In this document: positions 53,640-60,877 of the stretch, piece after piece
How the letters are laid out: each line of letters opens with the position of its first letter
Numbering within the stretch: position 1 is the first letter of the stretch
Source: Minisyncoccota bacterium
GTDB taxonomy: Bacteria; Patescibacteriota; Minisyncoccia; Phycocordibacterales; UBA2100
NCBI GenBank assembly: GCA_035708165.1
Contig: DASSSZ010000001.1
Span: 230,884 to 294,883, forward strand
Length of the DNA stretch: 64,000 bases
Direction of reading: 5' to 3'
Notes under the pieces: generated by a model
Seen by the model: only the letters and a program-made list of their open reading frames with translations
Database searches by the model: none
Told to the model about the DNA's origin: nothing
Translations under genes and position numbers: made by a program

Positions 53640-54239
53640 TTAGATGAACTGCCAGGTCTGCATGATTCCCGCGAGCCACGCATCATCATCCTTATAAGTG
53701 GTCACCTCATAGAGGAAGCCGCCATGGATGAACCACACCTCGCGCGTATCCCCCATTACCGGGTTGTTCCCGAAGAACATCGTCCCCGTCACGCCATCTA
53801 TGACCACGCTCGTGGGCTGCGTGCGCACGCCGGAGGGCTCGTCGAGCAGGAACCGCGCATCGCTTATGGTCGAGCTCGCGTACGACACGATATACACCTG
53901 GAACGCATGCGTATCATCCGCATCTTCGAAGGTGATCGTGTGCCCGCCGCCCGCTTCATCGTACTCGGCGCCGGTGAGCGTATCGGGATAGAGCAGGGAG
54001 AAATGATAGACGGCATTGTGGTACTCGCGTTCGCCCTCCGGCACCGCGCGCGGGTGCGTGAGAGGCGCACGCGGCGCGGCGAATGCTGCAAGCGCGCGCG
54101 CCGGATCAGCGGCAAACGCAGCAGGCGCAGCCGCATGGCGAAGCCATGCGGCTGCGCCGATCACGATCAGAAGCACCGCCGCCGCGCACCCGGCGAGTAT
54201 CAGCTTCCGGTTCCCGAGCTGCCGCATCAATGGAACCAT
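53640..54239 (-). CDS. membrane-anchored hypothetical protein, paralog 1 (199 aa)
   Basis: N-terminal signal anchor. C-terminus REVWFIHGGFLYEVTTYKDDDAWLAGIMQTWQFI paralogous to 55459..56079. Start overlaps the stop of the Gly-rich gene. Confidence 0.55.
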   Translation of the reverse strand: MVPLMRQLGNRKLILAGCAAAVLLIVIGAAAWLRHAAAPAAFAADPARALAAFAAPRAPLTHPRAVPEGEREYHNAVYHFSLLYPDTLTGAEYDEAGGGHTITFEDADDTHAFQVYIVSYASSTISDARFLLDEPSGVRTQPTSVVIDGVTGTMFFGNNPVMGDTREVWFIHGGFLYEVTTYKDDDAWLAGIMQTWQFI

Positions 54240-58051: not shown

Positions 58052-60877
58052 TTAGAAAAGCGCCATGCCGAAGAGGGTCGTACCGCCGAAGAGGATGACC
58101 GATTTCGCGATGTGCTCCGTCGTCGTCACGCCCCCGCTGCCGCTCCAGTCAGTCGTGATGCCGTCGCCGTTCTCTGCCTGCGATTCGATCGTGTACTGCG
58201 TGCCGCTCTGAAGGCCGGTCATCGTGGTCGCATCCCACGCTGCATCCGTCTGCCAGACAGGCGTCGCCGATGGATCGCCGGACGCATCCACATACATGCC
58301 GTCCCACGCGGAATCCGTAGGCGAAGACGCCGTCACCTTGATCGCGAAGAGCGTGTTGCTCGGATTGCCGTTCGCATCGTTCGCGATGTTCGCAGTGCTC
58401 TCGGTCTGACCGGAGAGCGAGGGCGTGCCGGGAGTATTGGCGAACGTGTACGCTTCCGCGACGCTGCTCGTCGCGGTGTAGTTCGGCGTCGGCGCAGAGT
58501 CGCGCGTCGTGATCGCGTAGCCGTAGCACTTGTTCACGTCGAGCCCGGTATCGGTGTAGGTCGCGCTCGTCTGCCAGCCGGAATCAGCGCCGCCCGTGCC
58601 TGCGTCACTTCCGCAGGCCTTGTAGGTGAAATCATATTCGACGGGCGTGGATGATGCATCGGTTGCTGTGGTTGCGGTCATGGTGATCGCAGAACTTGAA
58701 GTTGCAGCCGGCACGGAATCGAACGTCGCCGGATTCGGCGTGGGTGCAGTGGTGTCGGGAGGCGCCGATTGCGGCGTATAGATGATCACGATGATGCCCT
58801 GGCCGCCGGTACCGCCGGTACCGGCGGCACTGCCAGCCGCGCCAGCACCGCCGCCAGCACCGCCATACGTACCACCAGCGCCGCCATTTCCTGCATTATT
58901 GCCGAATCCCATTCCCGACCCGCCGCCGCCGCCGCCTGCGCCATGTGTGGCATCCCATTCAGTACCCGCGCCGCCTGCGCCGCCATTGCCTGAACTACCA
59001 GACTCCCAGCCATACCCAGAACCGGCGCCGCCACTTCCGTTGCTTCCGTTTCCGCCGGCGCTGCTGCTTCCCGAGGTTGACCCGTCCGATCCGATACCGC
59101 CAGCCGTGCCGGTCGTCCCTGCGCCGCCATTGCCACCCTTCGATGATGATCCGGCAGATCCGGCCGTGGAAGACCCTCCATCCGCTCCGCCGCCGCCGCC
59201 GGCGGTATTGGGCGTAGAGGCATATGGCTTTCCGCCGCCTTTGCCAGCGCCGAACGGGCCCGCGGCCCCGCCACCTCCGCCCCCACCGTATGGCGAGCTG
59301 CCAGACACGGCCGCGCCAGCTCCGCCTGCGTACAGCGTTGTCCCTACCGAATTGCTCGTGCTACCGCCCGCACCAGCAGTCTTCCCTGATGCGTTCGCTC
59401 CGTTCGCTGCTGCAACCGTGCTGCTCGTATCGAACCATGTCGTGCCGGAGCCAACGCCACCCGCACCGATCGAATACGCAACGGAGCTGCCTGGAGTGAG
59501 CGAGAGATTCGCGATTTTTGCGTACGCACCGCCGCCACCGCCTGCGCCAGCGTACGACTCAGCAACACTGTTTGCACCATTCCCTCCTGCACCGATCGCC
59601 TCGATCGTATTGTTCGTGCTATCCCAGTCATCCGGCACGGTCCAGCTCGTGCCTGAGGTGAGGAAGATGATGCACTCGGTTCCGTTATACACGGCGCCAG
59701 CGTCGCAGGTCACCGGTTCATCCTCTTCCTCTTCGTCCCCACCACCGAGCGATGTTTCCGCGCCGACCTCATAGAATGTGCTCGGGCTCGTTTCGGTGTC
59801 GTATGCGGCCGCGAGCCAATCGGCACTGCGCGCTACCGAGGAGATGCGGAATTCATCGATATCTCCCGTGAAATACGCGCTCCCCGATGAGCCGGATGAG
59901 ACGTCCGAACCGATGTTCAGGCCGCTCGTATCGCCTGCGTCGATACTCGAGCCCAAGCCGTTCGTCGTGCCTTTGAGCGTGCCGTCCGTATAACCCTTCA
60001 GCGTCCCTGCGGAGCCGTCGAAGACACCGGCGACCTGATGCCATGCGGAAGTCGAGAGCGTGCCGACGTTCGCGACCTCGTTCGCGCCGTCGATCTTCAC
60101 CAGAGGCCCCTGGTCCCCGGCACCGCTGAAGGAAAGCAGGAAGAGCTGATTGCTCAGCTCCATGGAGCGCTCGCCGCTGTATGAGCTCGATTTCACGAAC
60201 ATCGAGAAGGTCGCGGCGTTCCCTATCGCGGCACGCTGAGCCGTCGTCGTGTTGATATGCGCGTTCGTGCTGCCGGAGAAACTGGTCGCTTCGCCTGCGA
60301 TACCCGAGACGAGCGTCCCGCCGTCCTCCGTAGAGTCAGAGAAAGTGCCCGTCGAATCGACCAGAGTCGAGCCATCCATGTGCCAGACGCCAAGGAACCC
60401 GTTCGACCACACTGCCGGCGCATCCGACTGGTCCGTGGTAATGGAGGAATCGCCGTAGCAGAGATAGAAGGCGGTGTCGGACGTATGCGAGAGAGTCGGC
60501 AGTTTCACCCAGTACGTGACGGCCCCGGTCGAGGCATCATAGCTCTCCGTCTCCCAATCGAGCTTCGTGCTGCAGGAGGAATCGCTGTAGAAGCCGATGT
60601 CATAGCCGCTCGTATTCTGCGCATCGCCACCGTTCGCAGTCGTCGCGAGATAGCTGTACGTGCCGGAGACAAGTACCGGGAAATCGGTAAGATCCGATCC
60701 TACCGTACCGGAGGGGATGGTAATGGAGCGGGTATACGAGAAGCCGTCCGCATTGGCGAGCGCGGGCGAAAGCGCGTATGCGGTGGCGAAGATTGCCAAG
60801 CAAAGCAGCGCGACTCGCGCGGATGCGGTCGCGGGTGTGATGCGTCGTACGTGCGGTTGCGTATCAGGTTTTCTCAT
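58052..60877 (-). CDS. large secreted surface protein: DUF2341-like N-domain, LamG/ConA-like domain, glycine-rich module, FN3-like repeats, C-terminal hydrophobic tail
   Basis: Signal peptide MRKPDTQPHVRRITPATASARVALLCLAIFATAYALSPALANA (internal ATG). DGFSYTRSITIPS..LTDFPVLV..YWVKLP..AFYLCYGD (DUF2341-like). GDIDEFRISSVARSADWL (LamG-like). Gly-rich module with TEWDATHGAGGGGGG..GQGIIVIIYTP. C-terminal FN3-like SAWDGMYVDASGDPSATPVWQTDAAWDATT. Confidence 0.7.
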   Translation of the reverse strand: MRKPDTQPHVRRITPATASARVALLCLAIFATAYALSPALANADGFSYTRSITIPSGTVGSDLTDFPVLVSGTYSYLATTANGGDAQNTSGYDIGFYSDSSCSTKLDWETESYDASTGAVTYWVKLPTLSHTSDTAFYLCYGDSSITTDQSDAPAVWSNGFLGVWHMDGSTLVDSTGTFSDSTEDGGTLVSGIAGEATSFSGSTNAHINTTTAQRAAIGNAATFSMFVKSSSYSGERSMELSNQLFLLSFSGAGDQGPLVKIDGANEVANVGTLSTSAWHQVAGVFDGSAGTLKGYTDGTLKGTTNGLGSSIDAGDTSGLNIGSDVSSGSSGSAYFTGDIDEFRISSVARSADWLAAAYDTETSPSTFYEVGAETSLGGGDEEEEDEPVTCDAGAVYNGTECIIFLTSGTSWTVPDDWDSTNNTIEAIGAGGNGANSVAESYAGAGGGGGAYAKIANLSLTPGSSVAYSIGAGGVGSGTTWFDTSSTVAAANGANASGKTAGAGGSTSNSVGTTLYAGGAGAAVSGSSPYGGGGGGGAAGPFGAGKGGGKPYASTPNTAGGGGGADGGSSTAGSAGSSSKGGNGGAGTTGTAGGIGSDGSTSGSSSAGGNGSNGSGGAGSGYGWESGSSGNGGAGGAGTEWDATHGAGGGGGGSGMGFGNNAGNGGAGGTYGGAGGGAGAAGSAAGTGGTGGQGIIVIIYTPQSAPPDTTAPTPNPATFDSVPAATSSSAITMTATTATDASSTPVEYDFTYKACGSDAGTGGADSGWQTSATYTDTGLDVNKCYGYAITTRDSAPTPNYTATSSVAEAYTFANTPGTPSLSGQTESTANIANDANGNPSNTLFAIKVTASSPTDSAWDGMYVDASGDPSATPVWQTDAAWDATTMTGLQSGTQYTIESQAENGDGITTDWSGSGGVTTTEHIAKSVILFGGTTLFGMALF

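Follow-up and report, generated by a model that had tools for sequence, protein, structure and literature searches.

A short motif on secreted proteins of Paceibacteria and the small membrane-anchored proteins encoded beside it: a candidate docking tag and its anchor

Bacteria of the candidate phyla radiation (CPR, Patescibacteria) can almost never be cultivated, and how they recognize and attach to a host is still an open question. A 64 kb stretch (64,000 nucleotides, nt) of contig DASSSZ010000001.1 from the metagenome-assembled genome of a Minisyncoccota bacterium (Candidatus Paceibacterota), hereafter the window, to whose positions all coordinates below refer, carries a string of genes that bears on this question: three large secreted proteins built from binding domains and two small proteins, here named SMALL, that are predicted to sit in the membrane and face outward. 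What are the small proteins for, and what ties them to neighbors of such different architecture? The answer that we favor from the sequence evidence, with a probability of roughly 0.55, is that a motif of about 18 residues on the large proteins (the T motif) acts as a docking tag, and that SMALL is the cognate membrane anchor or assembly platform for these putative adhesins. As the first-pass annotation of this DNA had claimed, the string consists of five co-directional open reading frames (ORFs) on the minus strand between 53640 and 60895, encoding proteins of 199, 388, 206, 605 and 947 amino acids (aa); the tail classes and clades named in the following list are defined in the next paragraphs.

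53640-54239, minus strand: SMALL-199, 199 aa, with an N-terminal membrane helix, an Ala/Pro-rich spacer and a predicted PsbP/Mog1-like outer domain; clade B; putative partner of the 388-aa cargo.
54227-55393, minus strand: cargo of 388 aa, with a signal peptide, a TNF-like plus glycine-rich domain (GRD) at 54338-55288, an acidic linker and a T1 tail.
55459-56079, minus strand: SMALL-206, 206 aa, with a TTG start; paralogue of SMALL-199; clade C; putative partner of the 605-aa cargo.
56087-57904, minus strand: cargo of 605 aa, with a GTG start, a signal or anchor segment, a BNR (Asp-box) beta-propeller, an FN3 domain and a T1 tail.
58052-60895, minus strand: cargo of 947 aa, with a signal peptide, DUF2341 (60419-60607), LamG (59813-60268), GRD (58772-59713) and two FN3-like domains.

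The first-pass annotation did not notice that the three large proteins share a conserved motif in their C-terminal tails, or that this motif is linked to the small partner. It is found on unrelated cargo architectures, usually as the last 18-22 residues, and occurs in two main classes, T1 (GRIIRLxGGxRLxGGVRL) and T2 (RxMRLFEGFKIKLxSGKIxL), and a third, T3 (FKIxGGRxLIxGGRVxI). In the window, bit scores with a hidden Markov model (HMM) of T1 distinguish two intact tails from a degenerate one.

54230-54295, minus strand: T1 motif of the 388-aa protein, GRVIRLHGRIKFHGLIWFH, at the extreme C-terminus (residues 367-388; T1 HMM 33.0 bits).
56090-56152, minus strand: T1 motif of the 605-aa protein, RKIIRLLGNVRLTGVRLY (residues 585-605; T1 HMM 28.6 bits).
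58055-58108, minus strand: degenerate tail of the 947-aa protein, SVILFGGTTLFGMALF, homologous to the 605-aa tail and not among the T1 HMM hits.

The distribution of the motif was followed with HMMs built for T1 and T2 at a threshold of at least 15 bits. A first sample of 40 loci, which together span 640 kb and contain 856 ORFs of 150 aa or more, held 24 T1 and 15 T2 genes. Each of these 39 has a SMALL gene downstream of it in the same orientation, no more than 100 nt away in 33 cases. A replicate on 80 independent metagenome loci gave the same picture, with a SMALL gene at most 2.5 kb downstream of each of 43 T-motif genes (within 300 nt for 38), which brings the two samples together to 82 of 82. 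Four tail-bearing GRD homologues picked independently of SMALL served as a blind prediction, and a SMALL gene was found downstream of three, in one case displaced by an IS3-family insertion. In locus L042 (L-numbers denote the loci compared), an IS3-family element with HTH_Tnp_1 and rve domains occupies 5815-7464 between a T1-tailed GRD gene and a SMALL gene that appears shortened N-terminally.

The proteins that carry the motif include GRD, LamG, BNR plus FN3 and DUF7483 architectures as well as many without a Pfam domain, and its position in them is not fixed: it is internal, between domains, in L038, L017, L012 and L003, and lies directly behind the signal peptide in L015. A variety of synonymous codons specifies its conserved Arg, Leu and Gly residues, and it is therefore the peptide that is conserved and not the DNA, which rules out an RNA- or DNA-level cause of tail conservation. 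A mostly terminal motif on diverse secreted passengers, accompanied by a dedicated and conserved partner gene, is also what would be expected of a sorting signal processed by some further enzyme according to a sortase- or exosortase-like logic, in which sorting or attachment would be the task of SMALL. We regard this as improbable, because no hydrophobic helix or basic cluster lies behind the motif, because internal and N-terminal copies exist, because the fold of SMALL is a binding-type PsbP fold with no similarity to proteases or transpeptidases, and because no NCBIfam or Pfam sorting-domain model matched. The classic C-terminal sorting signals (LPXTG, PEP-CTERM and GlyGly-CTERM) were considered and rejected, since T tails have no hydrophobic helix and the motif is not always terminal.

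Beyond adjacency, the class of the tail goes with the kind of SMALL behind it. A neighbor-joining tree of SMALL outer domains resolves clades A, B and C. Clade A is paired with 13 T2 and no T1 proteins, and clades B and C with 20 T1 and no T2 proteins (Fisher p = 1.7e-9, ignoring shared ancestry); in the metagenome replicate the match is 10:0 and 20:0 (p = 3e-8, again ignoring shared ancestry). The two samples contain no exception to the match, at 33:0 and 30:0. Within single genomes (L007, L038 and the window), paralogues group by tail class and not by genome, and the SMALL protein encoded behind a T3-tailed protein is a divergent one (37 bits). Clades A and B are told apart by positions concentrated at 153-162 and 168, which lie in the strand and turn ahead of the most conserved segment of SMALL, a hairpin (TREVWFIxGGxLYEVTTY) that is specific to the family.

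The SMALL family itself is large and without a profile model. More than 250 homologues at 40-60% identity are spread across genera, and a full scan gave 2647 clusters at 50% identity. None of the 120 homologues listed has a Pfam domain, and SMALL has no match in Pfam (E <= 10), NCBIfam (E <= 0.01) or PHROG (E <= 0.1). The AlphaFold2 (AF2) model (mean predicted local distance difference test, pLDDT, 87.6) consists of an N-terminal helix at residues 10-36, an Ala/Pro-rich spacer modeled with low confidence, and an alpha/beta domain with the fold of a PsbP/Mog1/Eag-like alpha-beta-alpha sandwich. By this fold it belongs to the superfamily of PsbP, Mog1, DUF1795 (Eag chaperones), DcrB, LpqN and Tsi3, without sequence-level membership. 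As modeled, with a transmembrane helix, a spacer and a PsbP-like fold, SMALL is built like a membrane-tethered binding module. A possible lipobox in SMALL-199 (LAGC) was discarded, as it is not conserved in the family.

Gene order, domain identities, the motif, its exclusive adjacency to SMALL genes and the matching of class to clade are the observations behind the docking-tag reading; from them we infer physical binding, an anchoring role and host adhesion. On this reading the locus is a Paceibacteria-specific array of cargo-plus-partner cassettes at a conserved chromosomal site. The cargos would be exported through Sec and their binding domains swapped freely, while each cargo would present a T motif of a short beta-strand and Gly-turn type. 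The downstream SMALL gene, often translationally coupled to the cargo gene, would supply an outer domain that binds the cognate motif after export, probably by beta-strand addition near the hairpin at 150-172, and this binding would tether or assemble the adhesin on the cell surface. The T1 tail of the 388-aa protein has a pLDDT of only 48-65 in the AF2 monomer model, which fits a peptide that acquires its fold upon binding another protein. Within the window, SMALL-199 would be the partner of the 388-aa protein and SMALL-206 that of the 605-aa protein, leaving the 947-aa protein, with its decayed 605-type tail, partnerless.

The tight gene junctions count for such pairing, and on these the earlier description can be made more precise. 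Stop and start codons had been said to overlap at two junctions. At the 388/199 junction they do: the longest SMALL-199 ORF starts at 54239, upstream of a nearly invariant Met at 54227-54225, and the codon of this start Met shares one base with the TGA stop of the 388-aa gene (54229-54227), giving TGATG. The 605/206 junction has a 7-nt spacer instead. The 947- and 605-aa genes lie 147 nt apart, and the former, described as beginning at 60877, reaches its claimed size only from the TTG at 60895; from the ATG at 60877 the product is 941 aa long, in agreement with the public gene call. More generally, the earlier picture of secreted surface proteins of shuffled modules with small membrane-anchored partners stands, the idea of partnership being backed by conserved adjacency and co-variation.

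Several points weigh against the docking-tag reading. The Fisher tests were not corrected for phylogeny, and the signal peptides on the cargos were assigned by eye. The loci of the first sample were found through SMALL and extend at most 10 kb to each side, such that distant T genes would be missed. No SMALL gene belongs to the 947-aa protein, whose tail is degenerate, and none lies downstream of one tail-bearing gene in L045. Conversely, no T1 or T2 motif of at least 15 bits is present within 100 nt upstream of about one-third of the SMALL genes, among them those behind three LamG cargos that end in ...YNRALS..QLY and tandem second copies of SMALL.

An analogy may be drawn with cohesin and dockerin, where a short docking module, mostly C-terminal and carried by many unrelated cargos, meets a cell-tethered cognate receptor, and type-specific pairs co-vary. 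The likeness would be one of function, for there is no relationship in sequence or fold, and no Pfam dockerin or cohesin model matched: the T motif consists of about 18 residues of beta and Gly-turn repeats, whereas dockerin is a calcium-binding duplicated segment; the SMALL domain is PsbP-like alpha/beta where cohesin is a jelly roll; and there is one receptor gene per cargo gene here, as opposed to the multi-cohesin scaffold of cellulosomes. Searches of the literature for CPR sorting signals and surface-anchor motifs turned up neither the T motif nor SMALL. The cargo domains and the RAYT genes and palindromes discussed below are already of known kinds, and it is the SMALL family and the T motif for which Pfam, NCBIfam and PHROG have no model. 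A wider claim can be advanced only tentatively and at somewhat less than even odds, namely that the two form an undescribed, Patescibacteria-specific surface-display system in which SMALL captures a tag that may stand at the C-terminus, inside or at the N-terminus of the passenger, at least three specificity classes co-evolve, and the displayed proteins are exchangeable adhesins of the phage receptor-binding type that serve host attachment. If the docking-tag reading is true, the surface adhesin repertoire of a genome would be defined by the simple rule of a T motif plus a SMALL gene, cargo exchange would be explained without rebuilding of the anchoring machinery, and the motif would offer a short, portable tag for surface display.

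The nature of the cargos bears on both their function and the main competing account of SMALL. The glycine-rich module was earlier said to belong to no described family; it is in fact the TNF-like plus glycine-rich domain of Pam3 gp24 and of Bxb1 gp33/gp29. A phmmer search of Protein Data Bank (PDB) sequences found Pam3 gp24 with the same hallmark motifs aligned, and the domain has the corresponding fold, a TNF-like beta-sandwich bearing a lattice of extended glycine-rich strands (AF2 model of the 388-aa protein, pLDDT 89.5). The Pfam family PF21722 (Gly_rich_2) is matched by 17 of 56 aligned GRD homologues (best E 4.6e-11), and many homologues carry a precomputed PF21722 label; the 388- and 947-aa copies in the window have no PF21722 match in hmmscan at E <= 10, probably because of the composition filter, and searches of NCBIfam and PHROGs returned nothing for the module. 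A search of the literature on PF21722 likewise turned up neither the T motif nor SMALL.

In the Pam3 fiber, the TNF-like plus glycine-rich domain is the receptor-binding tip, and fibers of this type have an N-terminal helical shaft that docks to the baseplate (PMC9608196). The phage fiber GRDs (Pam3 gp24, 7YPX; Bxb1 gp33/gp29, 9D93; PF21722) are the nearest relatives, and the glycine-rich domain of ALK and LTK is a more distant one. Unlike the phage proteins, the GRD proteins of the window have no such shaft and are fused to LamG, DUF2341 and FN3 domains and to a T tail. Nor do they look like fibers of a virion, as the cargo N-termini are signal peptides and no phage genes surround the locus; three GRD homologues have prepilin N-termini. 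The GRD is thus a phage-type receptor-binding domain found here within cellular, signal-peptide-bearing proteins, a cellular use of a polyglycine receptor-binding fold that has so far been solved in phage fibers and in the ALK and LTK receptors. About 20 of 120 GRD homologues (P0010, P0011, P0017, P0018, P0021, P0023, P0024 and others) share a different conserved C-terminal extension, ...ADPPxLLLVSxERLLRSPGRIRILAGPxSIHPLRGQ; they are encoded on contigs of up to 1.8 Mb and probably represent another lineage.

Other domain assignments of the first-pass annotation fared variously. DUF2341 and LamG in the 947-aa protein were found by Pfam (DUF2341, Laminin_G_3). The FN3-BNR-FN3 layout proposed for the 605-aa protein keeps its BNR repeats and one FN3 domain (Pfam BNR_6, fn3), and the N-terminal FN3 drops out for want of Pfam support. 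The 199- and 206-aa proteins are paralogues, as proposed (37% identity, E 1e-29), and the 605- and 947-aa proteins share an FN3-plus-tail module (54% identity, E 4e-38). The glycine-rich module is likewise common to the 388- and 947-aa proteins, with a Smith-Waterman score of 779 versus 253 +/- 16 for shuffled sequences; composition-corrected BLASTP did not align the two copies. It had been considered beforehand that the glycine-rich ORFs might be antisense shadows of genes on the plus strand, and they are not, because they have 310 homologues at E <= 1e-3 (best E 5e-39) and because of the high model confidence given above for the 388-aa protein. The Pro-rich plus-strand ORFs at 58782-59774 and 54924-55400 are themselves shadows of glycine-rich coding (GGN read as NCC), not genes. 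The suggested role in adhesion or host interaction is plausible, given that the glycine-rich module is a phage receptor-binding fold and that, among CPR bacteria, candidates for adhesins are usually LamG proteins (PMC11310336).

The phage connection also raises the possibility that SMALL is not a permanent anchor at all and acts instead as an extracytoplasmic folding or assembly chaperone for fiber-like cargos, released after assembly, as a cellular counterpart of Pam3 gp25, Mu Tfa or T4 gp38. In phage fiber/chaperone pairs (Pam3 gp24-gp25, Mu S-U/Tfa, T4 gp37-gp38), a small cognate partner gene lies directly behind that of the receptor-binding protein, and partner specificity follows the C-terminal region of the fiber. 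The homology of the GRD to Pam3 gp24 speaks for this account, as assembly there depends on gp25, which binds the TNF-like/GRD region; so do the fiber-then-chaperone gene order and cognate specificity, which fit the matching of tail class to clade, and the fact that the PsbP/DUF1795 fold includes the Eag-type chaperones SciW and PA0094. Unlike the phage chaperones, SMALL is membrane-anchored, outward-facing and PsbP-like; no Tfa-like fold was found, and not all of the cargos are fibers. Structural matches between SMALL and viral proteins included few significant ones, mostly annotated lipoproteins and no fiber chaperone. On balance a chaperone is a possible but doubtful explanation.

Where the cassettes sit in the chromosome says more about their origin. 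Genomic contexts of SMALL were compared in 3 + 36 + 4 loci, and a shared order emerged: a giant, fiber-like Peptidase_S74 protein, then one to three pairs of a large secreted protein and a SMALL protein, then gap-rpiB-rpe. The array is found in dozens of Paceibacteria, across genomes of the Adler-, Kaiser-, Nomura-, Vogel- and Zambryskibacteria types, with synteny kept across several orders. The locus is in this sense a conserved and easily recognized cassette: the partner stays constant, and the domains placed ahead of it, whether phage-style receptor-binding ones or lectin-like ones, are exchanged. In the window the first member of the series is cut by the end of the sequence.

61654-64000, minus strand: giant tail-fiber-like protein with a Peptidase_S74 intramolecular chaperone and an Ig-like domain (Pfam and PHROG tail-fiber matches), cut by the window end.

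An S74 protein lies upstream of the array in L011, L012, L018, L022, L026, L031, L034, L038, L042 and L044 as well. Just downstream of the array, between rpiB and rpe, type IV pilin-like genes (N_methyl) were seen in L043 (8096-8608) and L045 (7818-8850). Paceibacteria-type synteny also appears in L008, L013, L014, L019, L025 and several "Saccharibacteria" records; such records are labeled Acidobacteriota, Alphaproteobacteria, Gammaproteobacteria or Saccharibacteria. Their contigs of about 0.9 Mb resemble complete CPR genomes, and the labels are therefore probably wrong.

Could the string nevertheless be a toxin-immunity array of the polymorphic kind, or what is left of a prophage tail-fiber module? 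Modules of phage-fiber type are represented by the GRD and the S74 protein, small genes stand behind large ones, and the immunity proteins Tsi3 and TplEi of type VI secretion systems also use a PsbP-like fold. We nonetheless consider either origin extremely unlikely. That the five proteins are ordinary phage structural proteins of a prophage was a possibility named beforehand, and it is not supported, because none of them has a structural match among the PHROGs (the scan gave a single weak match, of the 605-aa protein to a PHROG of unknown function) and because SMALL was not found in the 2.9 million viral contigs of IMG/VR. Housekeeping genes flank the locus, with gap-rpiB-rpe adjacent, the synteny just described is kept over several orders, and the cargos carry N-terminal signal peptides; prophage hallmark genes were not found around the locus as far as the window end, inside the S74 gene at 64000. 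For a toxin-immunity array the polarity is reversed, since the short tail is conserved and everything else, the N-terminal domains included, is variable, and the 40-60% conservation of SMALL across genera is the opposite of hypervariable immunity proteins.

Base composition adds to the contrast between partner and cargo. The GC content at third codon positions (GC3) is 0.77-0.79 in the SMALL genes and 0.81-0.86 in gap and rpiB, as against 0.54-0.71 in the cargo genes and 0.60 in the RAYT genes; a host-like GC3 of SMALL with an atypical GC3 of the cargos fits resident partners and exchangeable cargo. The extreme case is the 605-aa gene, whose GC3 of 0.54 compares with about 0.8 in the neighboring housekeeping genes and whose BNR blades (56506-57430) are tandem DNA repeats of 73-92% nucleotide identity, which together suggest recent acquisition and internal expansion of this gene.

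The first-pass annotation had placed the five genes in an accessory island bracketed by two RAYT genes. The two flanking genes exist, each with a Pfam Y1_Tnp domain and each accompanied by its own palindromes, which resemble repetitive extragenic palindromes (REPs).

52780-52858: two REP-like palindromes, GCGGAGGTTWAACCTCCGC, between RAYT1 and gap.
52877-53620, minus strand: RAYT1, Y1/HUH, IS200-like (Pfam Y1_Tnp E 3e-7; NCBIfam RAYT 41.6 bits); the real start is probably 53533 (218 aa), the length of the public gene call.
53555-53573, 53600-53618 and, inside the ORF, 53343-53361: further RAYT1 palindromes.
60896-61600, minus strand: RAYT2, Y1/IS200-type (Pfam Y1_Tnp E 1e-7; NCBIfam RAYT 39.6 bits).
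60912-60930, 61408-61426 (inside the ORF) and 61646-61664: RAYT2 palindrome, TTAGAGGYTWARCCTCTAA, 3 copies versus 0 expected.

The arrangement recalls REPtrons in its Y1 HUH domain, its HFH and YxHxNP motifs and the cognate palindromes that flank each RAYT. Both proteins have the motifs for HUH and the catalytic Tyr, as MPNHFH and YIHLNP. It differs from REPtrons in that both proteins score under the equivalog cut-off of 80 of NCBIfam NF047646, and in that the palindromes occur within the 64 kb only at the RAYTs, one of them inside each ORF; the RAYT1 palindrome has 5 copies, all at RAYT1, versus 0 expected by chance.

If the two RAYT genes marked the borders of an accessory island and mobilized it, this would explain why they and their palindromes bracket the five genes, why GC3 is atypical in the RAYT genes and the 605-aa gene, and why RAYT genes recur beside the same locus in other genomes. 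Such an island is nevertheless very improbable. In many Paceibacteria the same array stands at the same site, upstream of gap-rpiB-rpe, whether a RAYT is absent, present once or flipped (it is free of RAYT in L001, L003, L007, L011, L012, L018, L024, L027 and L044), and the locus is therefore not a RAYT-bounded island. RAYT1 and RAYT2 are only 45% identical and have distinct REP palindromes, and are therefore not the two ends of one element; a DNA self-comparison found no near-identical duplications between genes, no repeats shared by the island ends and no near-identical DNA between them. RAYTs of REPtrons are not known as movers of multi-gene islands. The RAYTs are neighbors of the array, not its borders.

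A RAYT-like gene does recur beside the junction of SMALL and gap, in either orientation, in the window, L005, L038, L043 and L045 (also in L010, L020 and L022). Each RAYT ORF of the window holds one copy of its own palindrome at a homologous position, between the N-terminal YHLYxRG motif and the HUH motif, in a variable stretch of the protein: GCGGAGGTTAAACCTCCGC in RAYT1 (53343-53361) and TTAGAGGTTTAGCCTCTAA in RAYT2 (61408-61426).

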